From Bacteroidota bacterium (lineage in GTDB: Bacteria; Bacteroidota; Bacteroidia; Cytophagales; Cyclobacteriaceae), in contig JAFDZA010000015.1 in assembly GCA_018267135.1 (NCBI GenBank), forward strand, positions 29,402 to 93,401: a stretch of DNA of 64,000 nucleotides, given 5' to 3'. The notes beneath the pieces were generated by a model that made no database searches, had not been told where the DNA came from, and saw only the letters and a program-made list of their open reading frames with translations. A program made the translations under genes and the position numbers. Shown here one piece after another: positions 44,881-64,000 of this stretch; position 1 is the stretch's first letter, and the number at the start of each line of letters is the position of its first letter.

Positions 44881-44939
44881 GGTTAGATACAAGATAAATG
44901 CAGAATCTTGTTTAAAGAAAATCTAACCCCAAACAAGAT

Positions 44940-45506
44940 ATGAAAGTATTAAAATCCATGTCAGTGGCAATGCTCGTTGTGTTGTCATTTATCTTTTTCT
45001 CTTGTGGTAATAAACCACAGCAAGCAGTTGAGGTCACCAGCACACCGGTAGCTGATGGCGGTGGCCAGTCATCCGTAAAAGATGATGAGTCGCAAAAAGA
45101 TGTTGTTCGCGTAGCCGAATCATCTAAAGACCACACCACATTGGTAACGGCATTAAAGGCAGCAGCCTATGTAGATGCGTTATCTAACGCGGGGCCGTTT
45201 ACAGTGTTTGCCCCCACCAACGAAGCTTTTGGTAAGTTGCCGGCCGGCACGGTTGATGGCTTGTTAAAACCAGAAAGCAAGGATGCCTTGCGTAATATAT
45301 TGGAATACCATGTTTCAGTAGGGGTTTACAAAATGGAAAACATGAAAGACGGACAGAAGATTAATCAGGTAAACCTGGACGATATTGTTATTGGTATTAA
45401 AGATGGGAAATATACCGTAAACGGAGCGGCTGTCTTAGCTACCGTTAACGCATCAAATGGTATTGTTTATGTGCTCGATCAGGTATTACTTCCTCCAAAA
45501 AAGTAA
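44940..45506 (+). CDS. Fasciclin (FAS1) domain lipoprotein
   Basis: Lipobox FFSC; H1 GPFTVFAPTNEAF, ILEYHV, H2 NGIVYVLDQVLLP. Confidence 0.92.
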   Translation: MKVLKSMSVAMLVVLSFIFFSCGNKPQQAVEVTSTPVADGGGQSSVKDDESQKDVVRVAESSKDHTTLVTALKAAAYVDALSNAGPFTVFAPTNEAFGKLPAGTVDGLLKPESKDALRNILEYHVSVGVYKMENMKDGQKINQVNLDDIVIGIKDGKYTVNGAAVLATVNASNGIVYVLDQVLLPPKK

Positions 45507-45522
45507 ACCAGAAATAAAATAG

Positions 45523-45558
45523 AAAACAGACCGGGTAATTTATCCGGCCTGTTTTTTT
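45523..45558 (+). terminator. Terminator after the fasciclin gene
   Basis: Imperfect stem AAAACAGACCGG...CCGGCCTGTTTT followed by T run. Confidence 0.65.
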
Positions 45559-45572
45559 ATTTATGAGAACAT

Positions 45573-45604
45573 AAAAAATGCTGACGTTTCCATCAGCATT
45601 TTTT
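45573..45604 (-). terminator. Terminator after nrdJ (possibly bidirectional)
   Basis: Perfect 12-bp stem AAAAAATGCTGA/TCAGCATTTTTT with 8-nt loop. Confidence 0.75.
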
Positions 45605-45626
45605 CTTTGAGTTTATTATTTTACTA

Positions 45627-47477: not shown

Positions 47478-47559
47478 GATGTAGTGGGTTTAGTTGAAGT
47501 TTAAAAAAATGATTACTCAGGTTGTTCATGTGCCGGGTATGAAAAGAGGTTATGTATAT

Positions 47560-49923: not shown

Positions 49924-49941
49924 TACTTTAATATTGTCTAA

Positions 49942-49973
49942 CAAACTTAATAAAAGATAAATTAGTCCTGTAC
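49942..49973 (-). promoter_or_regulatory. Bacteroidota -7 element (49942-49949) plus adjacent putative Rrf2 operator (49950-49973)
   Basis: Minus-strand TAAGTTTG; ATAAAAGATA-AATT-AGTCCTGTAC shares 17 identical bp (GACTAATTTATCTTTTA, reverse strand) with the 53403 site. Confidence 0.7.
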
Positions 49974-50004
49974 TAAATCAAGCTATTTTTTTATTTTGAC
50001 AGGA

Positions 50005-51015
50005 TTATTTCAGCCAGCCGTTTTGTTTATACCAGGCAGCTGTTTCGCGAATGGCATCCGCTAAATGGTAGCGAGGCTGAAGGCGGGTTTCTTCCCATAC
50101 GGGGCGGCTGTTGCAAGCCCAATTAACGGCCGAGATTTCAGTCAGTTTTTCAGAGTTGAGGAACCGTGTGTTCCCCGAGTGTGCCAGCCATTTTTCATGA
50201 GTCTTAACAATAGCCTGCAAAGGTTTTAAGGGTACTGAAAGTCGTATTGTTCTTTTGTTTAGAGCCGATCGGATGATGCCGTTCAATTCTTCGTTGGTGT
50301 AGTGCTGCCCGTCCGAAACCAGAAATGTTTGGTTGGCTGCCGGCTCTTTAAGCAAGGTAATGGCGATGTGCGAAAAATCTTTTACATAAATGAGAGAGAG
50401 TATTTGCCGGTGGCTCCCCAGGGTAATCTCAAATCCATGGTTAATCATTTTAAACAATCGTAAAAAATCTTTATCACGCGGGCCAAAAACAGCGGTAGGT
50501 TTTAGAATGGTAGTAGGAAAATATCCGGATGATTTCACAAATTCTTCTGCCATTTTTTTACTCCGGGCATAAGCCGATACCGGGCACTCGTCATCCGTTA
50601 CGTCAATCGGCTTAAGTGTAATAGGGCAGCCCGGCCCATACGTAGCCAGCGAACTGATCAGCATGAAGCGGGTAAGCGGCATGGCCGTGCGATGCAGGGC
50701 CTTCATCAGGTTTTTTGTGTACAGACAATTTACCTCATAAAATTCATTTGGATGATGAGCAGAAGTAATGCCTGCATTATGAATGACATAGTCGAAAGAA
50801 CCATGTTGGATTTGAAAATCGGAAAGGGCTTTCGTCAACTCATCGGGTGCGGAGAGGTTCAGTTCAAGTAACTGAATATTGTATAGATTTAAAAATTCTA
50901 AACGGCTTGATTTCCGGATGCCGGCATAAACCTCAAGCCCCTGCCGGATAGCTTCTTCCACTAAAAAACTACCTATAAAACCGCTGGCTCCTGTGATAAG
51001 GATTTTCCGGCTCAT
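50005..51015 (-). CDS. NAD-dependent epimerase/dehydratase (extended SDR); candidate ceramide/3-oxoceramide reductase
   Basis: GASGFIG, HNAG, SSLA, YARSK (YxxxK); ATGA-coupled to the GNAT gene in an operon with spt. Confidence 0.75.
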   Translation of the reverse strand: MSRKILITGASGFIGSFLVEEAIRQGLEVYAGIRKSSRLEFLNLYNIQLLELNLSAPDELTKALSDFQIQHGSFDYVIHNAGITSAHHPNEFYEVNCLYTKNLMKALHRTAMPLTRFMLISSLATYGPGCPITLKPIDVTDDECPVSAYARSKKMAEEFVKSSGYFPTTILKPTAVFGPRDKDFLRLFKMINHGFEITLGSHRQILSLIYVKDFSHIAITLLKEPAANQTFLVSDGQHYTNEELNGIIRSALNKRTIRLSVPLKPLQAIVKTHEKWLAHSGNTRFLNSEKLTEISAVNWACNSRPVWEETRLQPRYHLADAIRETAAWYKQNGWLK

Positions 51016-52136
51016 CGAATTGACTTAAAATAACACCGCCTGCGTTTGTGCTGTTCTGTTTCAAAGTAATCCCACATGGCTTGCACTTTTGTATTTTTTT
51101 CCAACTCGGGATTGGTTTCGGCATATTCTACTCCGTGTTTAATGCACGATTTGGTTAGTTCATCAATAAGAATGGCGTTAACGCCTTTCCCCTGTAGATC
51201 GGGCCGTATGGCTACGATATACAAATCAATAATATTATTTTTTCGCAAGGCTTTAAGCAAATGAAAAATGCCAAACGGAAAAAGTTGGCCATTGGCTTTT
51301 TGCAGGGCTTTTGATAGGGAGGGCATGGTAATGCCAAAGGCAGCTAATTTTCCGTCATGGTCAGTAATGAGCGATACAAAATCTGTTTTGATGAATGAAA
51401 AGTATTGCTGTGTATAGTAATCGATTTGCTTATCGGTTAAGGGCACTACCCCAAACAGATCGGCATAGGTAATATTAATTAGTTGAAAGACATCTTTTGC
51501 GTAGGGTAAAACATCTTTGGCTCTGCGTAATTTTACCACTTGCAACTGGCATCGTTTTTTTACCAATGAAGCAATACGCTCTAAGTTTTCGGGTGGTTGT
51601 TTAGGAAGATGAATCAGGTACTCTACCCAGTCGGCCTCTTTTTGGTAGCCCATTTCTTCCATGTATTTTGGGTAGTAGGGATGGTTATAAATGGTAGCCA
51701 GTGTACCTACCCGGTCATACCCCTCTACCAGCATACCTTCGTGGTCTAAGTCGGTAAACCCCATGGGGCCGTGCACGGCTTCCATATTCATTTCGCGTGC
51801 CCACGATTCTACTTTGGCTAACAGTTCTTCAGCTACACCCCGGTCATCTACAAAATCAAACCATCCAAACCGCAAGTAATTTTTTTTCCATTTTTCAATA
51901 AAAGCATGGTTTAAGATGCCTGCTATACGCCCGGCTACCCGGCCGTTTTTATAAGCAAGCCAATACCGGGCTTCACAATAGTCAAATGCCGGGTTTTTTT
52001 CTTTGCGCAATGTATTGAGTTCGTCAAACTGCAAAGGAGGTACGTAATAAGGATTTCCCTTATACAAGTGGTATGGAAAATTAACAAAGTCTTTAAGTTC
52101 TTTAGAGGATGATACTTCTTTTACCAGTAAACTCAT
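51012..52136 (-). CDS. YghO-like GNAT-fold protein; candidate bacterial ceramide synthase
   Basis: FVNFPYHLY...YVPPL, RFGWFDF, VHGPMGFTDLD, YNHPYY motifs; 8 bp downstream of spt. Confidence 0.7.
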   Translation of the reverse strand: MSLLVKEVSSSKELKDFVNFPYHLYKGNPYYVPPLQFDELNTLRKEKNPAFDYCEARYWLAYKNGRVAGRIAGILNHAFIEKWKKNYLRFGWFDFVDDRGVAEELLAKVESWAREMNMEAVHGPMGFTDLDHEGMLVEGYDRVGTLATIYNHPYYPKYMEEMGYQKEADWVEYLIHLPKQPPENLERIASLVKKRCQLQVVKLRRAKDVLPYAKDVFQLINITYADLFGVVPLTDKQIDYYTQQYFSFIKTDFVSLITDHDGKLAAFGITMPSLSKALQKANGQLFPFGIFHLLKALRKNNIIDLYIVAIRPDLQGKGVNAILIDELTKSCIKHGVEYAETNPELEKNTKVQAMWDYFETEQHKRRRCYFKSIR

Positions 52137-52144
52137 AGCTACGG

Positions 52145-53362
52145 TTAGATGATTTCCAGTTTTCGGGAGATGGAATAGATTTTTGAAAGAGCACGGTCTA
52201 TTTGCTCAAAAGTGTGCGTGGCCATCAAACTGAACCGGATCAACGAACTATCGGAAGGCACCCCGGGCGAGCAAACCGGATTTACGAAAACACCTTCATT
52301 TAGCAACCGGATGGCTAACTGAAAAGTTTTTAAATCATCGCGCACATAGATGGGTATAATGGGAGTACAAGAGTGGCCCAGATCAAACCCCATTTGTTTT
52401 AAATTTTGTAAAGCATAGTGGGTGTTATCCCACAAACGCTCGATGCGTTCCGGTTCTCGTTTTATAATGTTCAGGGCTGCCCGGGCACTGGCTGCGGCAG
52501 GGGGCGATATACTGGCGCTAAACATGAGCGACCGGGCATGATGTTTCAAAAAATTGATAACTGATTTATCGGCCGCAATAAACCCTCCGATGGAAGCCAA
52601 TGATTTGCTGAAGGTGCCCATGATTAGATCTGTCTTTCCGGTCAGGCCAAAATGCGAAGCTGTGCCGCGGCCGCCTTGCCCGATTACGCCCAGTGCATGG
52701 GCATCGTCTACCATGATGTTTGCCCCGTACTGCTCGGCCAGCTTTGCTATTTCCGGCAGATTGGCAATATCGCCATCCATGCTGAAAATCCCATCCACTA
52801 CGATCAATTTAATTCGATCGTCATCGTGCGATTGCAAAATTTTTTCGAGCGAAGCCATGTCGTTATGCTTAAACTTCAGCGTTTTACTGAAACTCAGACG
52901 GCTCCCTTCAATAATGGATGCATGGTCTAACTCATCCAGAATTAAACAATCGTGGCGGTTCAGTAGTGCGGGAATCACCCCAATGTTTACCTGAAAGCCC
53001 GTGCTAAAAACTAAAGCAGCCTCTTTACCCACAAACTCGGCCAGTTGCTCCTCCAAATCAAGATGAATGTCTAAAGTACCGTTTAAAAAGCGTGAGCCGG
53101 CACAGCCTGTGCCATATAGACGAACCGCTTCATTGGCAGCCCACTTTACTTCCGGATGGTTGGTAAGCCCCAAATAACTGTTAGAACCGAACATAAGAAC
53201 CGGTTTTCCGTCAATCATCACTTCCGTGTCCTGATCCGACTCAATCACCCGAAAATAGGGGTAAAGCCCAAGCCGTTTCAGATTATCGGGCAAATCAAAA
53301 TCGGTGGCTCGCTGCACCAGCCGGTTCTTCCGGGTAGCCGGGCTTTTCAATAAAGTGTTCAT
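52145..53362 (-). CDS. spt: Serine palmitoyltransferase (alpha-oxoamine synthase family)
   Basis: GLYPYFRVIESDQDTEV, MFGSNSYLGLT, DHASII, DDAH, PLP lysine in GTFSKS; N-terminus resembles Bacteroidota SPT rather than BioF. Confidence 0.8.
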   Translation of the reverse strand: MNTLLKSPATRKNRLVQRATDFDLPDNLKRLGLYPYFRVIESDQDTEVMIDGKPVLMFGSNSYLGLTNHPEVKWAANEAVRLYGTGCAGSRFLNGTLDIHLDLEEQLAEFVGKEAALVFSTGFQVNIGVIPALLNRHDCLILDELDHASIIEGSRLSFSKTLKFKHNDMASLEKILQSHDDDRIKLIVVDGIFSMDGDIANLPEIAKLAEQYGANIMVDDAHALGVIGQGGRGTASHFGLTGKTDLIMGTFSKSLASIGGFIAADKSVINFLKHHARSLMFSASISPPAAASARAALNIIKREPERIERLWDNTHYALQNLKQMGFDLGHSCTPIIPIYVRDDLKTFQLAIRLLNEGVFVNPVCSPGVPSDSSLIRFSLMATHTFEQIDRALSKIYSISRKLEII

Positions 53363-53390
53363 GAATTTATTTTTTTATGTAAAAAACAGT

Positions 53391-53426
53391 CAAAAATAAA
53401 TAATAAAAGACTAATTTATCTTTTAA
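53391..53426. promoter_or_regulatory. Divergent promoter: spt -7 element (53391-53398, minus) and putative Rrf2 operator (53403-53426)
   Basis: Minus-strand TATTTTTG; palindrome ATAAAAGACT-AATT-TATCTTTTAA. Confidence 0.7.
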
Positions 53427-53480
53427 ATATTAGAATTTAATTTGCACCTGAATTAGGCTTAATTTTTTAGGCAGGATAGT

Positions 53481-53864
53481 ATGAAAATTTTTGCTGGTTG
53501 TTTAATTGTTTCGTTTTCTGTTTACTCGGCCGTGATCTATTGGCTGCCGAATACGGAAGCAGCTATGCTCCCTAAGGCGGTTGCCGGAAAAATGGTATGG
53601 CAACAAAAAAACTGTGTGGCATGCCATCAGATTTACGGATTAGGCGGCTTCTTGGGGCCGGATTTAACGAACGTATATTCGGGTAAAGGGCCTGATTATA
53701 TAAAAGCTTTTGTGCAGGCAGGCACTATTACGATGCCCGCCTTTAATCTGACAGACGAGGAATTGGAAAACCTAACATCTTTTTTGCAACAGGTGGATGC
53801 CTCAGGATACTCTGATCCCCGAAAACACAAAATAAATTTTGATGGAACAATTGAAAGAAAATAA
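53481..53864 (+). CDS. NorC-like membrane-anchored monoheme cytochrome c
   Basis: One N-terminal TM helix, GKMVWQQKNCVACHQIYGLGGFLGPDLT, distal MP. Confidence 0.85.
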   Translation: MKIFAGCLIVSFSVYSAVIYWLPNTEAAMLPKAVAGKMVWQQKNCVACHQIYGLGGFLGPDLTNVYSGKGPDYIKAFVQAGTITMPAFNLTDEELENLTSFLQQVDASGYSDPRKHKINFDGTIERK

Positions 53865-55227
53865 ACTGCCCCCCCCCAAACGCCTGATTATTACCGGTAT
53901 GGTAATGTTGGTAGTGGGTATGTTTTTTGGTGTGATAGGAAGTTTGCAATATGTTAGCCCGGGCTTATGGAAGAGTATTTTATCCTTTGATAAAGTAAGA
54001 CCGCTCCATGTTTCGTCTATTGTATTTTGGATATTGCTGACGGCCTCGGGAGGGGTGCTCACTTATGCCGGTGAATATGCAGGACGCCTTTTTTCTACGC
54101 GCTTATCCCAATTTCAATGGCTCTTTTTTTTAGTGGCTATAGTAGCCATCGGTATTAGTTATGTAAACGGAGTTTTTGGCGGCCGGGAGTATTGGGAGTG
54201 CCCGCCCATACTGGCTCTCTTTGTTGTTGCCGGTTGGCTGCTGTTTGCCATCAATATTATTGGCACCCTCCGCACATTAAAAAATCAACCGGTATATGTC
54301 TGGATGTGGCTTACGGGAGCTGTTGGATTTTTACTTATTTTTTTAGAATCCTATTTATGGCTGCTGCCGTATTTTCAGCAAACTATTGTGCGTGATATGA
54401 CGGTGCAGTGGAAATCGTATGGCTCGATGGTAGGTTGTTGGAATATGCTGATTTACGGATCGGGTATATTTCTTATGGAAAAAATCAGTTGCGATCAATC
54501 GTATGCTCGTTCGCGCATTGCTTTTGTCCTTTTTTTTCTTGGACTGATAAATCTGATGTTTAACTGGAGCCATCACATTTATATATTGCCTATTCAGCCT
54601 GTAATTAAGCATATCGGCTATTTAATCAGCATGACCGAGCTGTATATTTTAGGGCGTATTATTTATAAATGGAAAGAATCGTTGAGCTCTGTTCAAAAGT
54701 ATAAACACTTACTTGCTTTTCGTTTTTTATCGACAGCCGATGTATGGGTTTTTATTAATCTTGGGTTGGCTATCCTTATGTCGGTACCGGCCGTAAATCT
54801 ATACACGCATGGCACGCACATTACAGTGGCACATGTTATGGGCACTACCATTGGCATTAATTCTATGATTTTGATGGCCGTTGTTGTAGATGTGTTGGAG
54901 GGCACGTGCCTTAGCTTAGCCGCGATGCGCAATCGTATTTCAACTTGGCTGCTGGTGGCCAACGTTGCGCTCGTTGTTTTTTTTGGTTCGTTAATTACAG
55001 CCGGGGTATTGCGGGCACGCTGGCAGATGAGTAACCAAACCATTCCGTTCGGAGAAATGATGAAAGGACTTGCTCCCTATTTTGTTATTTTTTCTATTTC
55101 AGGCATTATTCTGTTTGTCTGTTTTTTTGCTATGGTTTTCCTTGTATTGAAAAGTACACTAAGTTGTTATTTTTACCGATCCTCCGTTCAGGAAGTGCGC
55201 CTAAAATCGCAGTGGCAATTAAAATGA
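53842..55227 (+). CDS. Atypical heme-copper oxidoreductase subunit I (NorB-like) with non-canonical metal ligands
   Basis: About 12 TM; RPLH, GREYWE, NWSHH, MTE and HGTHITVAHVMG motifs; helix VI reads QWKSYGSMVGCWN with no His. Confidence 0.82.
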   Translation: MEQLKENKLPPPKRLIITGMVMLVVGMFFGVIGSLQYVSPGLWKSILSFDKVRPLHVSSIVFWILLTASGGVLTYAGEYAGRLFSTRLSQFQWLFFLVAIVAIGISYVNGVFGGREYWECPPILALFVVAGWLLFAINIIGTLRTLKNQPVYVWMWLTGAVGFLLIFLESYLWLLPYFQQTIVRDMTVQWKSYGSMVGCWNMLIYGSGIFLMEKISCDQSYARSRIAFVLFFLGLINLMFNWSHHIYILPIQPVIKHIGYLISMTELYILGRIIYKWKESLSSVQKYKHLLAFRFLSTADVWVFINLGLAILMSVPAVNLYTHGTHITVAHVMGTTIGINSMILMAVVVDVLEGTCLSLAAMRNRISTWLLVANVALVVFFGSLITAGVLRARWQMSNQTIPFGEMMKGLAPYFVIFSISGIILFVCFFAMVFLVLKSTLSCYFYRSSVQEVRLKSQWQLK

Positions 55228-55655
55228 TATCGGTTACTAAAATATTCCGTTTTGAAGCGGCTCATGCCATCTATGCTTACCCGGGGCCGTGTGGCCATAT
55301 TCATGGCCATTCGTATGAGTTACACGTTACCGTTAGTCATCGGCATTATGAAAATAAATACTTGGAAGGGCAGGGGATGATTATTGATTTTAAGGAATTG
55401 AAAAAACGGGTGATGGTGAATGCCATTGATATGCTGGATCACAAACTGATTTTGTCAGACACCTTTCTGAGTCATTCTACTCAAACTTTCGATACAAATC
55501 AATTGGTAATTTTTCCGGTTGAGCCTACGGCCGAGAATATGCTGATTTTTTTGCGCGACCGAATTTCGGCAGTATTACCCGATGAAATTTTATTAGATTC
55601 ACTGAAGTTGTGGGAAACACGAGATTCCTATGCCACCTGGACAACCGATGTGTGA
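55224..55655 (+). CDS. queD: 6-carboxytetrahydropterin synthase (PTPS/QueD family)
   Basis: FEAAH, CGHIHGHSY (CxxxHGH), IDFKELK, PTAEN, LWET; ATGA overlap with the upstream gene. Confidence 0.85.
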   Translation: MISVTKIFRFEAAHAIYAYPGPCGHIHGHSYELHVTVSHRHYENKYLEGQGMIIDFKELKKRVMVNAIDMLDHKLILSDTFLSHSTQTFDTNQLVIFPVEPTAENMLIFLRDRISAVLPDEILLDSLKLWETRDSYATWTTDV

Positions 55656-55663
55656 AGTTCGCT

Positions 55664-56128
55664 TCATCTTATCATCCCTTTCATGTTTCCAAGTTTGTAG
55701 TTTTTTAAATAGGTTTTCCCTTTTACAAACTCGTCTCTCAATTCCTGAATTGTCTTTTTAAGCAGAATATCGCGCAACCGGGTTTTGCTTTCTTTTACTT
55801 GCCAATGTACCGGGCACGGAAAGGTATCGGAACACTCCTTTAATCCTAACACACAAGATTTTAATATATCGGTGCCATCAATGGCTTTCACGATAGAATT
55901 CAGCATAATAGGTTTGGCTTTGGGTTTGACATAAAAGCCGCCATTGGGACCTTTTGAGGAAGAGATAATTTTCTCGCGTACCAGAGTTTGAAGAATTTTG
56001 GCAGTAAACGATTGGGGCGAATCAGCCTCTCTCGCAATTTCTTTTACACTTAGCTTGGCACCATCGGCACTGCGTATAACAATGTATAATACTGCCCGAA
56101 TAGCATACTCGCATGCTCTTGAAAACAT
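55664..56128 (-). CDS. Rrf2-family transcriptional regulator (three Cys)
   Basis: MFSRACEYAIRA, SSKGPNGGF, CVLGLKECSDTFPCPVH. Start moved to ATG 56128. Confidence 0.92.
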   Translation of the reverse strand: MFSRACEYAIRAVLYIVIRSADGAKLSVKEIAREADSPQSFTAKILQTLVREKIISSSKGPNGGFYVKPKAKPIMLNSIVKAIDGTDILKSCVLGLKECSDTFPCPVHWQVKESKTRLRDILLKKTIQELRDEFVKGKTYLKNYKLGNMKGMIR

Positions 56129-56207
56129 AGACCGTTGGATTAAGAATAGATGGGTTCTCCCCGAAAGATAAAAATAACTTCCAAGAATATTCCCATACCG
56201 CAAAAGG

Positions 56208-58013
56208 TTAAGATACTTCTACTTTGGGCATCATTATTTCATACTCTTGGTGCAGTCGCTTTTCAGCCAGATCTATTCCATTTCTGATTCGGTTTTTAAG
56301 CTCATTTTTAAAGTCAACCCCAGCTATAAGTTCCCGGTAATAAAGTATGCCGTTCGAAATGTTTTGATATACATTTTGCACATATTTTACAGCCTTTTCA
56401 TCGAAAGTTTTGTGTGTCTTTTCAATAAGCTCTACGAGGTAGTCAATGTAGAGTGAAAGTTCCTTCACAAACATATTGGGACGCTTAGGGTCAGTAGGAA
56501 TGCCTACTTTCCCATAGATATGGTCGAGCATTTCCTTTAGTGAAACAATTTTTGAGAAGTAAGCAATATTAGGCCCCGGGCAAATATCTACCGATTCCAG
56601 TTTTTTAATGGGCTTCAGTTCATATTTTTTAATGGCTGCGTTGCTCAAACCGATGCAGAGACACTCTTTATCCAGTACGTCCTTTTTTTGCCGCTGAAAT
56701 TCTTCTTCGGGCAGGTTGAGCGAATGAAGCTGCTCCAATTTTTTCTTTTGATAGGTATGCGATGCCGTGCAAATAGGCTCGGTGGTAAATTCTGTGTTAG
56801 ACACTAAATATTTTTCGGTGCAAGGGCTTCCCGGTTTTCCTTTTTTTATACGTTCAAATTTTTCCAATTCGCCCGAGGTCCCTTTCAGGTAATGGAACCG
56901 AATACCCAGCGGTGAGTTTTTACTTAAAAAAACATCTTGTTCGGTAGCCCGGCTCAGCAGATTCAGAGTTGAGTCGTCAACGGTGGTTGCCTCGGGCACC
57001 AGTAAAAAGGGGGTTCCCCAGCCGGTGCTGTTTACCCCATAGTAGCTTCTCAGAAACTGATCTTCATCAGCTGTGCCTATGCCTCCCTGAACAGAGATAT
57101 GAATAGATGGGGCATAGGGCAATTGCCTTTTACCTTTTGTATGTAGTGCCTGATTGTACAGATTAAATAATTCACGGATTAACTCCTGACGTTTCAATTT
57201 GAATTCTTCCAAAATAGGCCCTATTAGATACCCATCGGTAGCAAAGGCATGCCCCCCGCAGTTTAAGCCGGATTCTATTCTAAACTCACTAACCCAAAGA
57301 CCCTTTTTGGCCAGCATTTTACCCTGCACATAGGCCGAACGGAAATCAGAAACTTTAATGATAATTTTTTTATCGAATACCCCGTTCGTGTCGGCATCAA
57401 ATGCCGAAAGTGTTTCCATGTAGTTGAACAGCCGAAGGTTTAGCCCGGCCGAGAGAACCACTGAAGAGTGGGAGAGGGTACTTTTAGCATATCCCCTAAG
57501 AGCGGTTACGGCATCGGACCCGTTTTCGATAACGTTTCCGTTGACATCTTTTGTATTCCGGTCCAGTTTAGTCATAATATTTACATCAATACTTCCGGCT
57601 ACGATTTGTCTGCGCAGCCACTGACTCAACTGTTCTTTTTTTTGGGGTTCAGTGGTGGTAGTCATTTGCCGGTAAACCCGATAAAGCCAACTGCTGCCCG
57701 GCTGCATTTCAAAATATTTATCTATTTCTAAACTTTCTCCGAACGGTTGTTTTTTAAGTTGCTCTATTTGCTCGGATACCATTCGCTGCACCAGATTTAA
57801 GTAATCCGTTATGCGTTTGGCCCGGTAATCTGCTTCTTTTGAAGAGATGGGGTAATAGTTTTCCTTTTTTAAGTGGTAATAATACCCTCTCATTTTTTCA
57901 ATAAGATTATCTTCGATAATTGACATTACCGATGAAATACCAAATCGAGCCACCTTTACGGGAGTGTCAATAGTGTAAGCCAGCCCCATTACCGGAATAT
58001 GAAACGAATGCAT
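56208..58013 (-). CDS. Uncharacterised protein with nitronate monooxygenase/FabK-like flavin-barrel motifs and a Cys-rich C-terminus
   Basis: ESGLNCGGHAF, VQGGIGT and GWGTPFL resemble EGxxAGGH, AGGI and GTRF; Cys in PCTEKYL, PICTAS, ECLCIGL, ICPGPN. Start ATG 58013. Confidence 0.6.
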   Translation of the reverse strand: MHSFHIPVMGLAYTIDTPVKVARFGISSVMSIIEDNLIEKMRGYYYHLKKENYYPISSKEADYRAKRITDYLNLVQRMVSEQIEQLKKQPFGESLEIDKYFEMQPGSSWLYRVYRQMTTTTEPQKKEQLSQWLRRQIVAGSIDVNIMTKLDRNTKDVNGNVIENGSDAVTALRGYAKSTLSHSSVVLSAGLNLRLFNYMETLSAFDADTNGVFDKKIIIKVSDFRSAYVQGKMLAKKGLWVSEFRIESGLNCGGHAFATDGYLIGPILEEFKLKRQELIRELFNLYNQALHTKGKRQLPYAPSIHISVQGGIGTADEDQFLRSYYGVNSTGWGTPFLLVPEATTVDDSTLNLLSRATEQDVFLSKNSPLGIRFHYLKGTSGELEKFERIKKGKPGSPCTEKYLVSNTEFTTEPICTASHTYQKKKLEQLHSLNLPEEEFQRQKKDVLDKECLCIGLSNAAIKKYELKPIKKLESVDICPGPNIAYFSKIVSLKEMLDHIYGKVGIPTDPKRPNMFVKELSLYIDYLVELIEKTHKTFDEKAVKYVQNVYQNISNGILYYRELIAGVDFKNELKNRIRNGIDLAEKRLHQEYEIMMPKVEVS

Positions 58014-58034
58014 TTTTTTATTTTTTTGAACATG

Positions 58035-58073
58035 CAAAGATACAATAAAAGATAATTTTATCCTTTATTTTTG
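58035..58073. promoter_or_regulatory. Divergent promoter pair flanking a putative Rrf2 operator (58045-58068)
   Basis: Minus -7 TATCTTTG (58035-58042), plus -7 TATTTTTG (58066-58073), palindrome ATAAAAGATA-ATTT-TATCCTTTAT. Confidence 0.72.
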
Positions 58074-58103
58074 CAAAAACAAAAACAGATTAAGATAAAG
58101 GAG

Positions 58104-58763
58104 ATGGAGAACAAACAAAATGGAGAGGTACTACAAACTACGAAAGAAGAGATAGCCAATACTGTAACTCATGGTTTGGCCATTGCTTTGAGCCTGGTAG
58201 GGGCCGTTTTTATCTATCATTGGCTAGCCGCTGATCCGGGTTCTGGTTGGCGAAAATGGTTTTCGGGCAGCGTTTACCTGTTATCGCTTATTATTTTATA
58301 TACAGCTTCTACTCTATACCATGCTGTAAATAACCTTAAATGGAAGCAATTCTTGCGCATAGGCGACCACAGTGCTATTTATATTAAAATAGCCGGTACC
58401 TACACTCCTTTCCTTCTTTTGGCATTTCCGTTAAGTAAAGGCTTGCCGTGGCTTGTGTTTTTATGGGTATTGGCCGGAGCCGGAATTGCCTTTAAAGTTT
58501 TTTTCACAAAGCGCTTTAGTGCCATTTCCGTGCTATTGTATTTGTTTATGGGCTGGACGGCCTTGTTTATGATTCACTCGCTGTACACGGCTGTTTCTTC
58601 TCCTGTATTTTGGTGCATCTTGGTGGGTGGACTTTTTTTCACATCCGGCTTACTTTTCTTTTTTGCTAAAAAAATACCTTATCATCATTCCATCTGGCAC
58701 CTATTCGTTATGACCGGCAGTGCGTTTCATTATGCCGGAATCTTTATGCTTTTTTTTAACTGA
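58104..58763 (+). CDS. Hemolysin III / PAQR (TrhA-like) membrane protein
   Basis: EEIANTVTHG, STLYH, DHSAIY, IAGTYTP, HSIWHLFV; AAGGAG just upstream of ATG 58104. Confidence 0.92.
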   Translation: MENKQNGEVLQTTKEEIANTVTHGLAIALSLVGAVFIYHWLAADPGSGWRKWFSGSVYLLSLIILYTASTLYHAVNNLKWKQFLRIGDHSAIYIKIAGTYTPFLLLAFPLSKGLPWLVFLWVLAGAGIAFKVFFTKRFSAISVLLYLFMGWTALFMIHSLYTAVSSPVFWCILVGGLFFTSGLLFFFAKKIPYHHSIWHLFVMTGSAFHYAGIFMLFFN

Positions 58764-58834
58764 TCGCACTCGATTGCAAAACTGATTTCTGTAAATTTTT
58801 TTACTTTATTTTCATCTTCGCCCTTTAAACAAAA

Positions 58835-58881
58835 ATAAAAGTATGTAAATACTTTTATTAAAGACAATCGCTGTATATTTG
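58835..58881 (+). promoter_or_regulatory. Perfect palindromic putative Rrf2 operator (58835-58858) and -7 element (58874-58881) of the ric operon
   Basis: ATAAAAGTAT-GTAA-ATACTTTTAT (perfect 10-4-10); TATATTTG. Confidence 0.78.
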
Positions 58882-58900
58882 TGCTGTTAAATAAAACACT

Positions 58901-59857
58901 ATGAATACCGCACAAGAAAATATTCTGAATGTAACCTTGCTGGAGCCCCGGATGAAGCATCCTACTATTTTCGCCTATTTCGACCGGCTAAACGGAAGCG
59001 AAACCCTAACCATTTTAAACGACCACGACCCCAAACCGTTGTATTATCAATTACTGGGTGAGAGGGGAAATATATTTAGCTGGGAATATGCCGAGCAGGG
59101 CCCCGAACAATGGCGTGTGCGAATTAGCAAACATAAAACAGGTGGCTCCGAAGAAACCCTGGGCCAATTGGCTACACACGATTTGCGCAAAGCGCAGGTT
59201 TTTAAAAAATACGGACTCGATTTTTGCTGCGGTGGAAAGAAAACTGTAAAACAAGCCTGTGCTGAAAAAGGCATTGATGTATCGGTAGTAGAAACCGAAC
59301 TGCAGCAAGCCGAACGGCAGGCAGCTCCCTCCACGCGTCCACTGGCTTACCATGAATGGAAGTTAGATTTTTTAGCCGACTACATCGTGCAGGTGCACCA
59401 TAGTTACATCAAAAAAAATTTACCTATTATTATAGACTTAACGCATAAAGTAATGGCACGACACGGCCATGCGCACACTGAGTTAGGCCGGGTGCATGAG
59501 TTGGTAGAAGCAATACGAGCCGAATTGCTTGAACATCTGCAAAAGGAAGAACAAATTATCTTCCCATTTATTAAGTCGCTCGCTTTGGCCTCCGGCTCTT
59601 CTAAGGAATTTTCGGCTCCGGCCGGTACGGTGCACACCCCGGTAAAGACGATGGAAAAAGAACATGAAAGGATAGGAAAATATTTAGAAGAGCTTCGTGC
59701 AGCAACTGATCAATACACCGCTCCGGCTGATGCTTGTGCTTCGTACAATATGCTGTATCGCTTGTTGGCAGAGTTTGAAGAAGATATGTTACAGCACATT
59801 CATCTGGAAAACAATATTCTTTTTCCTAAAGCGATAGAGATGGAGCAGACTGTTTAA
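58901..59857 (+). CDS. ric: Iron-sulfur cluster repair di-iron protein (Ric/YtfE/ScdA) with extra N-terminal DUF2249 domain
   Basis: NDHDPKPL (DUF2249), GLDFCCGG (ScdA_N), hemerythrin-like HH...H..KEE..FP...HIHLENNILFP. Confidence 0.92.
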   Translation: MNTAQENILNVTLLEPRMKHPTIFAYFDRLNGSETLTILNDHDPKPLYYQLLGERGNIFSWEYAEQGPEQWRVRISKHKTGGSEETLGQLATHDLRKAQVFKKYGLDFCCGGKKTVKQACAEKGIDVSVVETELQQAERQAAPSTRPLAYHEWKLDFLADYIVQVHHSYIKKNLPIIIDLTHKVMARHGHAHTELGRVHELVEAIRAELLEHLQKEEQIIFPFIKSLALASGSSKEFSAPAGTVHTPVKTMEKEHERIGKYLEELRAATDQYTAPADACASYNMLYRLLAEFEEDMLQHIHLENNILFPKAIEMEQTV

Positions 59858-59866
59858 CTTTGATGT

Positions 59867-60682
59867 ATGGCTACCATTAATGCGCGCACCAAAATAGCCG
59901 CGATACTCAAAGCAAACCCCGAAGCGCTGGAGGCAATCGTCAGTATTTCGCCTCACTTTAAAAAACTTCGCAATCCGGTGCTGAGAAAGATACTGGCTTC
60001 GCGTGCCACCCTGCAAATGGCCAGTAAGCTGGGAGGCTGCCGGGTAGAAGATTTTTTTGAAAAACTACGACCGCTCGGGTTTGAGATAGATGAGATGCCG
60101 TCCTCTCAGGAACACAAGAACGAAGGGCCACCTCCCGCTTTTATGAATGACCTGCGCCTAAAACAAATAACCGAACTGGACGTGCGCCCGGTAATGGAGG
60201 CCGGACAAGACCCCTTCAAAATAATTTCAGAAAAAATAAAACAACTGGAGCCGGGGCAGGTATTAAAACTTATCAATAGTTTTGAACCAGTGCCGTTGAT
60301 TGAATTGCTGGCTAAACAAGGTATTGAGAGCCATGTAGAGTTTGCAGACGAAAACTGTGTAGTTACGTATTTTAATAAAACATCCCGGTCGGTTCCTCAC
60401 AATGAAAAAGTGGCTATATCCAATCAATCAACCTGGAACGAGACACTTCACCGGTTTGAAGGAAAATTGCAATATGTGGATGTCCGCTCATTAGAAATGC
60501 CTTTGCCCATGTTCACTATTTTAGATGAACTAACAAAACTTCCCACGGGATATGCTTTGTTTGTTTATCATAAACGGGTGCCTGTATTTTTGCTGCCCGA
60601 ACTCCAGCAGAGAGGATTTAAGTATTTGATTTTGGATATCAGCGAAGCAGAAGTTCACCTGTTGATATTCCATTCGATATGA
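59867..60682 (+). CDS. DUF1858 + tandem DUF2249 domain protein
   Basis: N-terminal KIAAILK...FKKLRNP; LDVRPVMEAGQDPF and VDVRSLEMPLPM repeats. Confidence 0.75.
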   Translation: MATINARTKIAAILKANPEALEAIVSISPHFKKLRNPVLRKILASRATLQMASKLGGCRVEDFFEKLRPLGFEIDEMPSSQEHKNEGPPPAFMNDLRLKQITELDVRPVMEAGQDPFKIISEKIKQLEPGQVLKLINSFEPVPLIELLAKQGIESHVEFADENCVVTYFNKTSRSVPHNEKVAISNQSTWNETLHRFEGKLQYVDVRSLEMPLPMFTILDELTKLPTGYALFVYHKRVPVFLLPELQQRGFKYLILDISEAEVHLLIFHSI

Positions 60683-61944
60683 TCATGACCGATATTCCTG
60701 TTAAAACTACCCATGCACGAGTAATTATTCCTTTTTATGTATATGCCGGTATTAGTTTTTTAGCTGCATCCATCACCCTCCTGTTTTCTACCGAGGCTTT
60801 TCATAAACACTATTTTCATCCACATCTGTTGGCCATCACACATCTGATGGCTATTGGTTGGGGTACCATGATCATTATGGGAGCCAGCTACCAGTTGGTG
60901 CCGGTAGTGGCCGAGGGAAAACTGTATAGCGATAAACTGGCGTATGCTTCTTTTGTGTTGGCAGCCGTGGGGTTGCCTTTATTGGTTATTAGTTTTTTTG
61001 AATTTGATATGGGCTCACCGGCCAAGTGGGGTGGGCGTTTGCTGGCCCTCTCCGTTATCTGTTACCTCTTCAATATTGGCAAAACCATTGTGCGAGGAAA
61101 AAGTGAAAATGTGCATGCTACTTTTATTTTTACTGCGGTGGTTTGGCTTTTAATCACTTTCCTTTTTGGGTTGGCATTAGTTTATAATTTTACCTACCCG
61201 ATATTCCCGCATGATTCCATACACTATCTTCCGCTGCACGCCCATGCCGGAGTAGTGGGGTGGTTTTTGTTGCTTGTTATGGGGGTAGGCTCGCGCCTTA
61301 TTCCTATGTTTTTAATTTCGAAATACACTAATGCCCGTTTGTTATGGATCATTTATTATTGCCTTAACGGAGCATTGATCAGCTATATATTCATTTTTTA
61401 TTTTGCCGAAACAAAAGTACTTATTTTCGGCCCCGGGGTATTGCTGCTGTTGTCCATAGTTTTATTTGTGGTGTATTGTTTACGTGCCTACCATGCGCGA
61501 TTACGCAAACAAGTAGATGCCCAGATGAACGTTTCTATGCTTTCGGTGTGGATGATGGGCATTCCGGTTATCCTGTTATTTGCTATCATCGTATCGGTAA
61601 TCGTTACCAAACAGGAGAACATCTCTCTAGTTTTAGCCTATGGGTTTATGATTTTTTTCGGATGGATTACGGCCATCATTCTTGGTATGACATTTAAAAC
61701 CTTACCCTTTATAGTGTGGAACCAAATTCGTCATCGCTATACGCCCGAAAAATTACCCAGCCCCAAAGATCTGGTTCATTCATTTTTATTTCGAATGATG
61801 TCTGTCTGCTATCTGGCCGGATTTATTTTGTTTGCTGTCGGTATACTCTGGCCCTACTCATTACTGCTGCCGGGAGGAGCTTGCTTGTTAGTATTCGCAG
61901 CCGTTTTTTATAATTTAAACGTGTTGAAAATTGTTACGCATTAA
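60679..61944 (+). CDS. 12-TM membrane protein, NnrS/heme-copper oxidase subunit I-like
   Basis: Three-fold internal repeat ending YQLVPV, SRLIPMF, FKTLPF; intramembrane His in THLMAIGW and LHAHAG. Confidence 0.6.
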   Translation: MIMTDIPVKTTHARVIIPFYVYAGISFLAASITLLFSTEAFHKHYFHPHLLAITHLMAIGWGTMIIMGASYQLVPVVAEGKLYSDKLAYASFVLAAVGLPLLVISFFEFDMGSPAKWGGRLLALSVICYLFNIGKTIVRGKSENVHATFIFTAVVWLLITFLFGLALVYNFTYPIFPHDSIHYLPLHAHAGVVGWFLLLVMGVGSRLIPMFLISKYTNARLLWIIYYCLNGALISYIFIFYFAETKVLIFGPGVLLLLSIVLFVVYCLRAYHARLRKQVDAQMNVSMLSVWMMGIPVILLFAIIVSVIVTKQENISLVLAYGFMIFFGWITAIILGMTFKTLPFIVWNQIRHRYTPEKLPSPKDLVHSFLFRMMSVCYLAGFILFAVGILWPYSLLLPGGACLLVFAAVFYNLNVLKIVTH

Positions 61945-61955
61945 CAGAATGTAGG

Positions 61956-62276
61956 ATGGTACAAACAAACAACGAAGTGGAGTGCGAGCGGGCATTGGCT
62001 CCGCTTTATCAAGTTAATGATCCGGAAATAGGATTGAACGTAGTGGACTTAGGACTTATATATGAAATACAATTTGAGGAAGCTATAAAAAAGATAACCT
62101 GCCGGATGACCGTAACTTCGCAGGCATGCCCCATGACGGAGGCCATTACCGATGGCGTGCACCAGGCACTGCATTCGGTTTTTCCCGATGATGAAATTGA
62201 AATCCGTCTTACCTTTGAGCCTCCCTGGAGCCAAGATATGATTACCGAACAAGGCCGTATTTTTTTAAGCCAATAA
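61956..62276 (+). CDS. DUF59 / SufT-like metal-sulfur cluster assembly factor
   Basis: DPEIGLNVVDLGLIY, MTVTSQACP, LTFEPPWS. Confidence 0.9.
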   Translation: MVQTNNEVECERALAPLYQVNDPEIGLNVVDLGLIYEIQFEEAIKKITCRMTVTSQACPMTEAITDGVHQALHSVFPDDEIEIRLTFEPPWSQDMITEQGRIFLSQ

Positions 62277-62280
62277 ATTG

Positions 62281-62715
62281 ATGTTAAGCCTGAGTTGTAA
62301 AGCTTCTATTAAAGCCGTTGTGTATTTAGGCTCGAAGCTGAAACCCGATGAGCGAGCCGGCATTAAATCGGTGGCCCGGTTCATTAATGAAAATGAACAT
62401 ACCGTAGGGAAGATACTACAAAAGATGGTAAAGGCTAATATTATCCACAGCACCAAAGGCCCCAACGGAGGATTTTATATTTCTGCCAAGCAAAAAAGAA
62501 TACCGGTTATGGCCATCGTTCATGCCATTGATGGCCAAGGCGTATTTAATCAGTGCGGGCTGGGCTTTAGTAAATGCAGCGACTCGCACCCATGCCCGCT
62601 TCATACCGATTTTAAACCCGTGCGCGAACAGTTTAAAGAGATGTGCAGCAACAGCACGATAGAAACCCTTTGCTCTCGGGTAGATCAGGGAATCGCTATC
62701 TTAATGAGAAAGTAA
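62281..62715 (+). CDS. Rrf2-family transcriptional regulator (three Cys), second copy
   Basis: STKGPNGGF, CGLGFSKCSDSHPCPLH. Confidence 0.92.
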   Translation: MLSLSCKASIKAVVYLGSKLKPDERAGIKSVARFINENEHTVGKILQKMVKANIIHSTKGPNGGFYISAKQKRIPVMAIVHAIDGQGVFNQCGLGFSKCSDSHPCPLHTDFKPVREQFKEMCSNSTIETLCSRVDQGIAILMRK

Positions 62716-62901
62716 CGCAGGCTTAACCTTTACAATATTCAATATTTTTTGATCGCAAAATTTTGTGAATGAAGCTGGCGACCGGCTGAGCTCCACAAAT
62801 GCATCAAGGCCATTAAAATTGCAATCCACTTTTCAGACAATATTTTCTGCCTCCTACGTGTCCCTTTTTACATCTCGGCTGGCTTTTTCTATTTTTGCAG
62901 G

Positions 62902-63660
62902 ATGCAGTTCCATTTGCCACCGGGTAAAAAAATTTATTTTGCTTCCGATTTTCACCTGGGCGCGCCCGATGCGGCTTCAAGTTTAGAGCGAGAAAAAAAA
63001 GTAGTGGCTTGGCTGGATCAGATAAAGCAGGATGCACATGCTGTTTTTCTACTGGGCGATATTTTTGATTTTTGGTTTGAATACCGGCAGGCTGTTCCTA
63101 AAGGGTTTATCCGATTTCAGGGAAAACTGGCCGAGCTGCGCGATCGCCACATCCTTATTTATTTCTTTACCGGCAACCACGACATGTGGCTGTTTGATTA
63201 TTTTACTAAAGAATTAGGTATTGAAATTTTTCGCCACCCCGTTACAATAACGGTTGATAACTTGAAACTATTGGTAGGCCATGGTGATGGTCTGGGCGAC
63301 CCCAGCTTTTCGTATCATATTTTGAAGTGGTTCTTTAATAGTAAAATTTGCCAATGGCTATTTGCGCGGATACACCCCAACCTGGGCATTGGCATCGCTA
63401 AATTTTGGAGCCGCAGAAGCCGTGTGGCCAATACCCGTAAAGAAGAAAAATTCAGAGGAGAAGAAAAGGAATATCTATTGGTGTATTGTAAAAAATTAGA
63501 ACAACAAACTCATCACGATTTTTATATTTTCGGTCACCGTCATCTGCCACTCGATCTGAAAGTAACTGACCACAGCCGGTATATTAATTTAGGCGAGTGG
63601 GTTCATTTCAGCCCCTATTTTGAAATAGCCGATGGCCAGGCTGAACTTAAATCGTTTTAA
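62902..63660 (+). CDS. lpxH: UDP-2,3-diacylglucosamine diphosphatase
   Basis: SDFHLG, LGDIFDFW, GNHD, HGD, FGHRH, NLGEW metallophosphoesterase motifs. Confidence 0.9.
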   Translation: MQFHLPPGKKIYFASDFHLGAPDAASSLEREKKVVAWLDQIKQDAHAVFLLGDIFDFWFEYRQAVPKGFIRFQGKLAELRDRHILIYFFTGNHDMWLFDYFTKELGIEIFRHPVTITVDNLKLLVGHGDGLGDPSFSYHILKWFFNSKICQWLFARIHPNLGIGIAKFWSRRSRVANTRKEEKFRGEEKEYLLVYCKKLEQQTHHDFYIFGHRHLPLDLKVTDHSRYINLGEWVHFSPYFEIADGQAELKSF

Positions 63661-63664
63661 CTCT

Positions 63665-64000
63665 ATGCCCCGGTATTTTGCACTAATCCTTTCACTTTTA
63701 TTTTTTCTAAACGCCCCGGCACAAGCCATAAAAAAGTTCGGTGAATTTAAAACCGATAAGATTGAAAACGCAACGGTTGACAGGCTGGGTAATTTATTCT
63801 TAGAATTTTCAAACGGACAAATCAAAAAGTATGATCCGAACGGAAAGGTACTGGCCCGGTTAAAATCTAAATCGCTGCCCACACTTTTAGAGCCTTGGTT
63901 TCACCCTAAAATTTTTGCTTACTATAAAGAAGGCCAGCGAATAGTTAATTTTAACCGCAATTTTGAGATAACAGACGAAGATAAACTCGATCCCTCGGTG
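63665..64000 (+). CDS. Hypothetical exported protein (partial, runs off the window end)
   Basis: Not in the ORF track; open from ATG 63665 (MPRYFALILSLLFFLNAPAQ...ATVDRLGNLF...KKYDPNG) to the end; signal-peptide-like start. Confidence 0.7.
   Translation, partial: MPRYFALILSLLFFLNAPAQAIKKFGEFKTDKIENATVDRLGNLFLEFSNGQIKKYDPNGKVLARLKSKSLPTLLEPWFHPKIFAYYKEGQRIVNFNRNFEITDEDKLDPSV

Follow-up and report, generated by a model that had tools for sequence, protein, structure and literature searches.

A candidate FMN/[Fe-S] oxidoreductase of the FabX clade, with an unusual architecture, beside a putative Rrf2 operator in a Bacteroidota nitric oxide island

The enzyme for unsaturated fatty acids in Helicobacter is FabX (HP0773 of H. 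pylori; PDB 7e1q and 9lt5), which converts decanoyl-acyl carrier protein (decanoyl-ACP) to cis-3-decenoyl-ACP. FabX carries flavin mononucleotide (FMN), a catalytic histidine (H182) and an iron-sulfur (Fe-S) cluster liganded by C300, C304, C308 and C320, and its cluster subdomain takes the place of the site for reduced nicotinamide adenine dinucleotide or its phosphate (NAD(P)H) in FabK (PMC8626469). Its homologue in Neisseria gonorrhoeae, NGO1024, functions anaerobically with an unknown electron acceptor (PMC11300592). We analyzed a 64,000-nucleotide (nt) stretch of DNA from a Bacteroidota bacterium of the family Cyclobacteriaceae (assembly GCA_018267135.1, contig JAFDZA010000015.1, positions 29,402 to 93,401), here called the window, and identified a minus-strand gene (56208..58013) for a FabX-like protein of 601 amino acids (aa). 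The chances seem to us about even that this protein is a cytoplasmic oxidoreductase of a distant, enlarged branch of the FabX clade, using FMN and an Fe-S cluster to act on acyl thioesters, derepressed by nitric oxide (NO) and serving the acyl chains of the membrane.

The predicted structure strongly indicates the (alpha/beta)8 barrel of the nitronate monooxygenase (NMO)/FabK/FabX superfamily of FMN enzymes. The AlphaFold2 model, made with the family alignment, has a predicted local distance difference test score (pLDDT) of 93.7 and a predicted template modelling score (pTM) of 0.93. Foldseek returned 82 PDB matches at E<=0.001. The top matches listed all belong to the NMO/FabK/FabX superfamily, with H. 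pylori FabX in first place (E 6e-11); PfaD, trans-AT enoyl reductases, FabK and nitronate monooxygenases come next. In VIA-align, superfamily matches span Z 18-26 over 280-350 residues and FabX is again at the top (Z 25.9, root-mean-square deviation 3.1 A, 331/366 residues). Scores for the other members are about 23 for FabK, 18-22 for NMO and PA1024 (22 for the latter), 19-21 for PfaD, and 19-21 for the enoyl-reductase domain of fungal and mycobacterial fatty acid synthases. Residues 5-510 of the model match FabX 6-363, so that all of FabX is covered, its C-terminal cluster subdomain included. Relative to FabX, the model has two additions: a helical insertion (about 44-145, some 100 residues) and a C-terminal extension of 90 residues formed by three long helices (522-608). 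An initial annotation of the window, made from the sequence alone, had proposed an FMN TIM barrel for this protein, and the barrel is what structure prediction and Foldseek returned, with FabX as the best match.

The open reading frame (ORF) finder placed the gene at 56208..58037 on the minus strand, with a TTG start and 609 aa. The true start is the ATG at 58013 and not the TTG at 58037, because the alignments of relatives begin at residue 9-10 of the 609-aa ORF and because the TTG (58037-58035) forms the final three letters of a -7 promoter box, TATCTTTG. Residue numbers follow the 609-aa ORF (protein P0001); subtraction of 8 gives the numbering from the ATG.

Three motifs that the initial annotation had picked out were all located in this minus-strand ORF. 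The active-site loop ESGLNCGGH (57249..57275) contains the invariant E255, G262 and H263, with H263 corresponding to H182 of FabX, and a family-specific cysteine, C260. The QGGIGT motif (57072..57089) is the FMN phosphate-binding strand and aligns with AGGI of FabX and FabK. GTPF, found as GWGTPF (57006..57023), is the last FMN-binding strand and aligns with QxATRF of FabX. All are on the minus strand, as are a basic helix and a Cys-rich subdomain. The basic helix KVSDFRSAYVQGKMLAKKG (K228-G246; 57300..57356) lines up with alpha-7 of FabX, the helix that docks ACP there (K152, R160, R164), and keeps R233, K240, K244 and K245, in a register that an indel makes uncertain. The Cys-rich subdomain (56580..56822; C406-x16-C423 ... 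C459-x-C461 ... x24-C486) is the putative cluster site. Its five conserved cysteines, placed from the predicted model and the sequence, lie where the model overlays the [4Fe-4S] subdomain of FabX, and it may hold an Fe-S cluster.

A second protein family forms a bridge in sequence between the FabX-like protein and FabX. In genomes of the phylum, the Pfam NMO model picked up FabK-type proteins of the ordinary kind, together with a single canonical FabX-type protein that has the Cx3Cx3C...C pattern (L147). The genomes of one large genome family, f24 (1.8-2.8 Mb each), carry a FabX-like family of 418-421 aa (L160-L165; alignment A2) with the cysteine pattern C-x12-C-x25-CxC, present in 8/12 of the f24 genomes. 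Against the PDB, A2 matches FabX at E 2e-32 and FabK at 3e-13. The alignment of the 601-aa family (A1) matches A2 in hhalign with 95.7% probability (E 9e-9, 275 columns). Paired segments are IDVNIMTK with IFLNCMEK (N153 with N113), ESGLNCGGH with EGPLAGGH, QGGIGT with AGGIFT and GWGTPF with QVATRF; C406, C423, C459 and C461 stand opposite A2 cysteines (DKECLCIGL with EKTCLCTGM). In turn, the alignment of A2 with FabX matches EGPLSGGH, AGGI and ATRF of the latter. From the two alignments together, H263 therefore corresponds to the catalytic H182 of FabX, and E255 to E175. When an A1 hidden Markov model was run with filters off, Fe-S-bearing FabX-type proteins outranked all but one FabK/NMO-type protein, at low scores, and hhalign of A1 against the single FabK-type protein of the window's genome gave no signal; the link was seen through A2. 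Given the A2 bridge and a fold that matches FabX best, the 601-aa family is therefore read as a remote FabX-clade branch of increased size.

Conservation in the family is high at the predicted active site. Scored on 52 members of A1 that share 30-71% identity, 19 columns are invariant, including N153, K228, D231, E255, G262, H263, S375 and P376. Q317, G318 and G319 are kept in at least 90% of the sequences, and G341-T/S342 is conserved. The protein contains exactly six cysteines, C260 (51/52), C406 (52/52), C423 (52/52), C459 (51/52), C461 (52/52) and C486 (50/52). The initial annotation had remarked on several C-terminal cysteines and had treated their lack of conservation as a reason to abandon its reading; the five from C406 to C486, like C260, are each kept in 50-52 of the 52 relatives. 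Also as it had noted, the protein is much longer than typical superfamily members, its 601 aa being about 1.7-1.9 times the 310-370 aa of FabX, FabK or NMO.

The family is large. Searching the ESM Atlas with the FabX-like protein gave unnamed Bacteroidota clusters only. In a word-index search, at least 8000 clusters (90% identity) were scored, all significant and nearly all named 'hypothetical' (one is 'YrpB, nitropropane dioxygenase family'), and an exhaustive search gave 963 family representatives at 50% identity. At least 596 species genomes encode a relative. Going by record titles, the best 80 relatives are mostly from Cytophagales, Chitinophagales, Flavobacteriales and Sphingobacteriales, with a few from Ignavibacteria or Planctomycetes. 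In an even sample of the phylum the family is present in 37/100 genomes, in one copy each, and it is found in 0/21 genomes of f24. Neither Pfam (E<=0.01) nor NCBIfam gave a match for the protein, and we found no publication on the 601-aa family in the literature searched. This is a very large, single-copy, highly conserved and confidently folded family that has no Pfam or NCBIfam model.

The gene is preceded by what appears to be a divergent promoter region with one operator. A 26-bp palindrome, AATAAAAGATAATTTTATCCTTTATT (58044..58069, both strands), is common to two promoters. One has the Bacteroidota-type -7 box TATCTTTG (58035..58042, minus) and would serve the FabX-like gene and an Rrf2-family regulator downstream of it. 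The other has the -7 box TATTTTTG (58066..58073, plus), which overlaps the operator and would serve a PAQR/hemolysin-III (TrhA) membrane-homeostasis gene (58104..58763, plus; 219 aa). The called TTG start of the PAQR/TrhA gene (58071) is formed by the last three letters of the TATTTTTG box, and its true start is the ATG at 58104. The two TAnnTTTG boxes thus stand back-to-back, flanking the operator (58035-58073). The Rrf2 gene (55664..56128, minus; 154 aa, ATG 56128) matches PF02082 (E 2e-21) and TIGR00738 (above cut-off), and its product carries the cluster ligands C-x6-C-x5-C. It is probably co-transcribed with the FabX-like gene, which lies on the same strand at a distance of 79 nt; no terminator-like site was found on that strand, and the terminator scan, like the sigma-70 scan, gave hits at chance level. 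The co-oriented Rrf2 gene and the preceding palindrome had both been reported in the initial annotation and are borne out.

A second copy of the operator (58834..58859, both strands) lies 14 nt 5' of TATATTTG (58874-58881), the -7 box of the ric operon (58901..62715, plus). This operon encodes a DUF2249-RIC protein, a protein with DUF1858 and two DUF2249 domains, a 421-aa membrane protein that weakly matches COX1, a DUF59 protein and a second Rrf2, and is the second unit of the putative regulon suggested by the sequence. Two occurrences of the palindrome pattern are in the window (0.00 expected), and the 3.41-Mb genome as a whole has no more than these two. Palindrome and TAnnTTTG box are kept in all four related loci in which the gene is followed by Rrf2 (L002, L003, L006 and L008), and no palindrome is present upstream of the divergent T-Rrf2 pair (L100, L101). 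A canonical FNR box (TTGAT-N4-ATCAA, up to 1 mismatch) is found upstream of 3/80 relatives, against a background of 3.5%, and is not enriched. From the content of the ric operon and from the neighboring genes we infer that the operator regulon responds to NO. The three-cysteine Rrf2 would keep both the FabX-like operon and the divergent PAQR/TrhA gene repressed, and the promoters would be freed once Rrf2 meets NO or loses its cluster.

The two Rrf2 genes (55664-56128 and 62278-62715) are paralogous; both have the C-x6-C-x5-C arrangement, and each is the last gene of an operon headed by the palindrome. A third and looser palindrome, ATAAAAGTATCTAATACCTTTTAT (G000:C22:223449), sits among unrelated genes for apparent secreted or surface proteins and is probably a chance occurrence.

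Natural fusions bear on the direction of electron flow. In twelve independent clusters (P0124, P0272-P0282; 1158-1177 aa) the FabX-like domain is joined to a C-terminal module with flavodoxin, flavin adenine dinucleotide (FAD) and NADPH parts, which NCBIfam places as CysJ-like at 548 bits, under the equivalog cut-off. A 981-aa fusion (P0146) bears a PlsB/PlsC-type acyltransferase and another (P0131) an N-terminal TetR domain. All fused forms checked retain the catalytic histidine, the FMN residues and the six cysteines. No fused form was found in 400 sampled genomes of the phylum, and a metagenome scan with P0124 returned unfused relatives only, plus one 222-residue fragment at 86% identity. 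A diflavin reductase normally passes electrons from NADPH to a partner, and transfer from the acyl/enoyl couple to NADP+ is strongly uphill. For these two reasons the flavin in the fusions is most likely reduced from outside. The fusions suggest that electrons enter the flavin via the Cys-rich subdomain, and that a reductase or a reduced-flavin isomerase fits better than an O2-linked dehydrogenation of the FabX kind. As proteins with their own NADPH reductase, they offer a self-sufficient enzyme for direct assay.

The mechanism that we propose for the unfused protein follows this wiring. The FMN would exchange hydride or electrons with C-alpha/C-beta of an acyl thioester, most likely acyl-ACP or enoyl-ACP bound at the conserved basic helix. 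Through the Fe-S cluster, the flavin would be linked to an external one-electron partner of flavodoxin or ferredoxin type, which in the fused homologues may be built in as the CysJ-type NADPH diflavin reductase; with such a built-in partner, the flavin most likely needs reduction from outside. Candidate reactions would be a reduced-flavin trans-2/cis-3 isomerization or the reduction of a C=C bond, rather than a FabX dehydrogenation that passes electrons to O2. In the cell, the enzyme could provide an O2-independent adjustment of membrane acyl chains when NO or anoxia disables O2-dependent di-iron enzymes of the desaturase family. The genome contains five FA_desaturase-family hits and no free FabA; its only match to the FabA Pfam model lies in a 495-aa frame, which we take from its length to be an LpxC-FabZ fusion. 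The FabX-like gene offers a way to test how denitrifying aerobes maintain their membrane lipids under NO and anoxia.

The lipid role of the FabX-like enzyme is plausible, if unproven, because its closest relatives all act on acyl-ACP, because a fusion with a PlsB/PlsC-type acyltransferase exists, because the operator is common to PAQR/TrhA, and because a serine palmitoyltransferase gene (668 bits in NCBIfam vs a cut-off of 640) lies 3 kb away. The broader reading, in which aerobic Bacteroidota have a widespread, O2-independent enzyme for modifying acyl chains, an Fe-S-wired reduced-flavin relative of FabX that receives its electrons from flavodoxin or a fused NADPH reductase, and in which it belongs to a back-up regulon that replaces O2-dependent di-iron enzymes under NO or anoxia (this enzyme for the desaturases, NrdJ for class I ribonucleotide reductase), or in which the protein is the first dedicated reductase of nitrated lipids, is offered tentatively; we regard it as well short of an even chance.

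The alternative that survives best keeps the same cofactors and makes the protein a net reductase, with electrons running from NADPH or flavodoxin through the Fe-S cluster and FMN to an activated C=C bond of an enoyl-ACP, a nitroalkene or a nitro-fatty acid. This would be a FabK-like reaction with an external donor and the wiring of FadH and dihydropyrimidine dehydrogenase, and nitrosative stress would supply the nitro substrates. The twelve CysJ-type fusions, which retain all catalytic residues, speak for it, as do the placement of the gene in the NO regulon and a YhbP-family gene directly upstream, on the same strand, in at least 11 loci. So does the conserved C260 adjoining the catalytic histidine, which recalls the acid cysteine of FMN-barrel C=C reductases. 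Yet the genome already encodes, elsewhere, a normal 312-aa FabK-type protein (which has no C-terminal cysteines), the closest solved relative, FabX, runs oxidatively, and we know of no nitro-lipid reductase with the NMO/FabK/FabX fold. We consider a net reductase possible, and clearly less probable than the NO-derepressed FabX-clade oxidoreductase outlined at the start.

Less probable again, and unlikely in our view, is a true dehydrogenase/isomerase of the FabX type, which would oxidize saturated acyl-ACP and pass the electrons via the cluster to O2 or a quinone. FabX is indeed the best match in structure and through the sequence bridge, and the basic helix on which FabX docks ACP is retained. 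However, a fused NADPH reductase could not take up acyl/enoyl electrons, given the uphill transfer, and control by NO together with neighbors of low-O2 type argue against an O2-dependent reaction.

Genes within 8 kb were counted at 103 related loci. The recurrent neighbors are Rrf2 (17), PTPS (15), a NorCB-like haem-copper oxidase (12), a NorCB-associated cytochrome c (11), RIC (10), nosD, nosY or nosL (7-8), qNOR (5), a 374-aa GNAT protein (5) and an NrdJ-like protein (3), and at least one gene of the NO/nitrous oxide (N2O) island (Rrf2, NorCB-like, cytochrome c, RIC, nos, qNOR or NrdJ) is present in 36/103 loci. Hemerythrin and DUF2249 genes are also among the recurrent neighbors. The company of RIC, hemerythrin, DUF2249 and NorCB-like genes would suit a protein with a non-lipid substrate, such as a small N-oxide or a quinone (as for the NADH:quinone reductase PA1024, which matches at Z 22), or one that serves as an Fe-S/flavin sensor or as a repair factor of the NO response. 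The nearest relatives by structure and profile act on acyl-ACP, the acyltransferase fusion exists and the operator is common to PAQR/TrhA, all of which tell against such a function, and we rate it as slightly less likely than the FabX-type dehydrogenase.

It is very improbable that the protein is an O2-using oxidase of the nitronate or nitroalkane monooxygenase type, with the O2 possibly supplied by a Nod-like enzyme: NMO structures match at Z 18-22 and, in one source, a family member goes by the name 'YrpB, nitropropane dioxygenase family', but NMOs have no Cys subdomain and score below FabX and FabK, a qNOR-like gene is present in only 5/103 loci, and an oxidase has no need of a fused reductase. 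Of the two functions that the initial annotation had offered, the lipid-related one therefore stays plausible, on the grounds given above (acyl-ACP relatives, acyltransferase fusion, shared PAQR/TrhA operator, serine palmitoyltransferase). The nitro-compound oxidase is less likely (Z 18-22 vs 25.9 for FabX, and no Fe-S subdomain in NMOs). The further suggestion of the initial annotation, that the protein is a candidate consumer of O2 made by the Nod-like enzyme, finds no support, considering the 5/103 loci, the reductase fusions, which suggest electron input, and the anaerobic function of NGO1024 (PMC11300592).

Several results weigh against a FabX-clade enzyme with a membrane role under NO control. 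A PF03060 (Pfam NMO) scan of the window's genome did not include the FabX-like gene among its matches, and searches of PDB sequences with the single protein, the A1 profile and a 129-residue motif core gave spurious apolipoprotein helices only. The cysteine pattern, C406-x16-C423-x35-C459-x-C461-x24-C486, is not the Cx3Cx3Cx11C of FabX, and the fusions with an NADPH reductase are at odds with the direction of the FabX dehydrogenase. About two thirds of the 103 loci have no NO-related neighbor. Across 100 genomes, nosZ and the FabX-like family show no association (both in 16, only one of them in 21 and 20, neither in 43); the odds ratio of about 1.6 is weak and vanishes once f24 is left out. 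Three genomes of the window's own genus lack the gene (G171, G311 and G379). Finally, many Bacteroidota rely on branched-chain over unsaturated fatty acids, so that a back-up for desaturases may not be needed.

Where nosZ and the FabX-like gene do occur in the same sampled genome, they lie within 9 kb of each other in 6/16. At the DNA level, a fasciclin gene and the gene at 62902-63660 are the only parts of 44900-64000 that match the three genomes of the same genus, one of which also matches part of the NorCB-like gene. Most of the NO island seems to be variable within the genus, although identities of 66-70% come close to the lowest that can be detected.

Other genes of the island are of interest for lipid and nucleotide metabolism. 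A trio with the appearance of an operon (50005-53362, minus) encodes the serine palmitoyltransferase, a 374-aa double-GNAT protein that NCBIfam does not name and an NAD-dependent epimerase/reductase, and sits between the qNOR-like gene and the NorCB-like genes. By sequence it looks like a set for bacterial ceramide synthesis. An NrdJ-like class II ribonucleotide reductase gene (45627-47477, minus) adjoins the qNOR-like gene in the island, and class I NrdB is encoded outside it (G000:C26:52713-53513). NrdJ-like genes also neighbor the FabX-like gene in L006, L008 and L027. In parallel with the role proposed for the FabX-like enzyme, the NrdJ-like gene could back up the class I ribonucleotide reductase. 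The island would fit, as an unproven reading, a collection of O2-independent or NO-tolerant substitutes.

The YhbP-family genes (140-160 aa) that directly precede the FabX-like gene encode what we take to be an FMN-binding fold. Their loci (among them L007, L009, L011, L015-L017, L022, L029, L042 and L052) mostly bear the titles Chitinophagaceae, Ferruginibacter or Sediminibacterium, and often also have genes for a U32-family 'peptidase', a 4HBT thioesterase, a double-GNAT protein and a DGC-domain protein 5' of the FabX-like gene. Together with the latter, this set may form a conserved operon that serves an acyl pathway.

Compared with described systems, the wiring of the fused homologues would be that of FadH (2,4-dienoyl-CoA reductase) and dihydropyrimidine dehydrogenase, their architectural analogues, in which electrons pass from NADPH through flavin(s) and Fe-S to an FMN barrel and a C=C substrate. 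The barrels of those enzymes are of the OYE and DHODH types, and their Fe-S part is not homologous to that of the FabX-like family. FabK (enoyl-ACP reductase II), PfaD and the trans-AT enoyl-reductase domains have the same barrel and histidine and act on enoyl-ACP substrates; they differ from the FabX-like protein in binding NAD(P)H themselves and in lacking an Fe-S subdomain. On the regulatory side, the regulon resembles those of NsrR and IscR in its three-cysteine Rrf2, a palindrome that overlaps the promoter, a ric (ytfE-like) gene and an autoregulated operon. The Rrf2 of the window nevertheless falls far short of the equivalog cut-offs for NsrR and IscR, and the operator, AATAAAAGWAT-N4-ATWCTTTTATT, is its own.

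The 420-aa A2 family of f24 shares the barrel motifs and the C...C...CxC arrangement with the 601-aa family, and the distributions of the two are complementary. A2 is shorter, has neither the large insertion nor the C-terminal extension, is detected by the Pfam NMO model and is closer to FabX than the 601-aa family is, although it does not have the Cx3Cx3Cx11C ligands. FabX and the FabX-like protein have in common the NMO-type FMN TIM barrel, the histidine of E...GGH, the AGGI-type and GT.F flavin strands, an S-P-x-G strand past the barrel, a subdomain with cysteines at the corresponding position and, in an uncertain register, a basic helix where FabX docks ACP. They differ in size (about 360 aa for FabX, vs 601 aa with the insertion and extension) and share about 19% identity, and the FabX-like protein has no Pfam NMO match. 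It also has an extra conserved cysteine (C260) in the active-site loop and would be controlled through an Rrf2 operator, and its family includes fusions with an NADPH diflavin reductase. Flavin/iron-sulfur chemistry of the FabX type has so far been described in Helicobacter and Neisseria; we predict that it extends in a new architecture to the NO/denitrification islands of environmental Bacteroidota.

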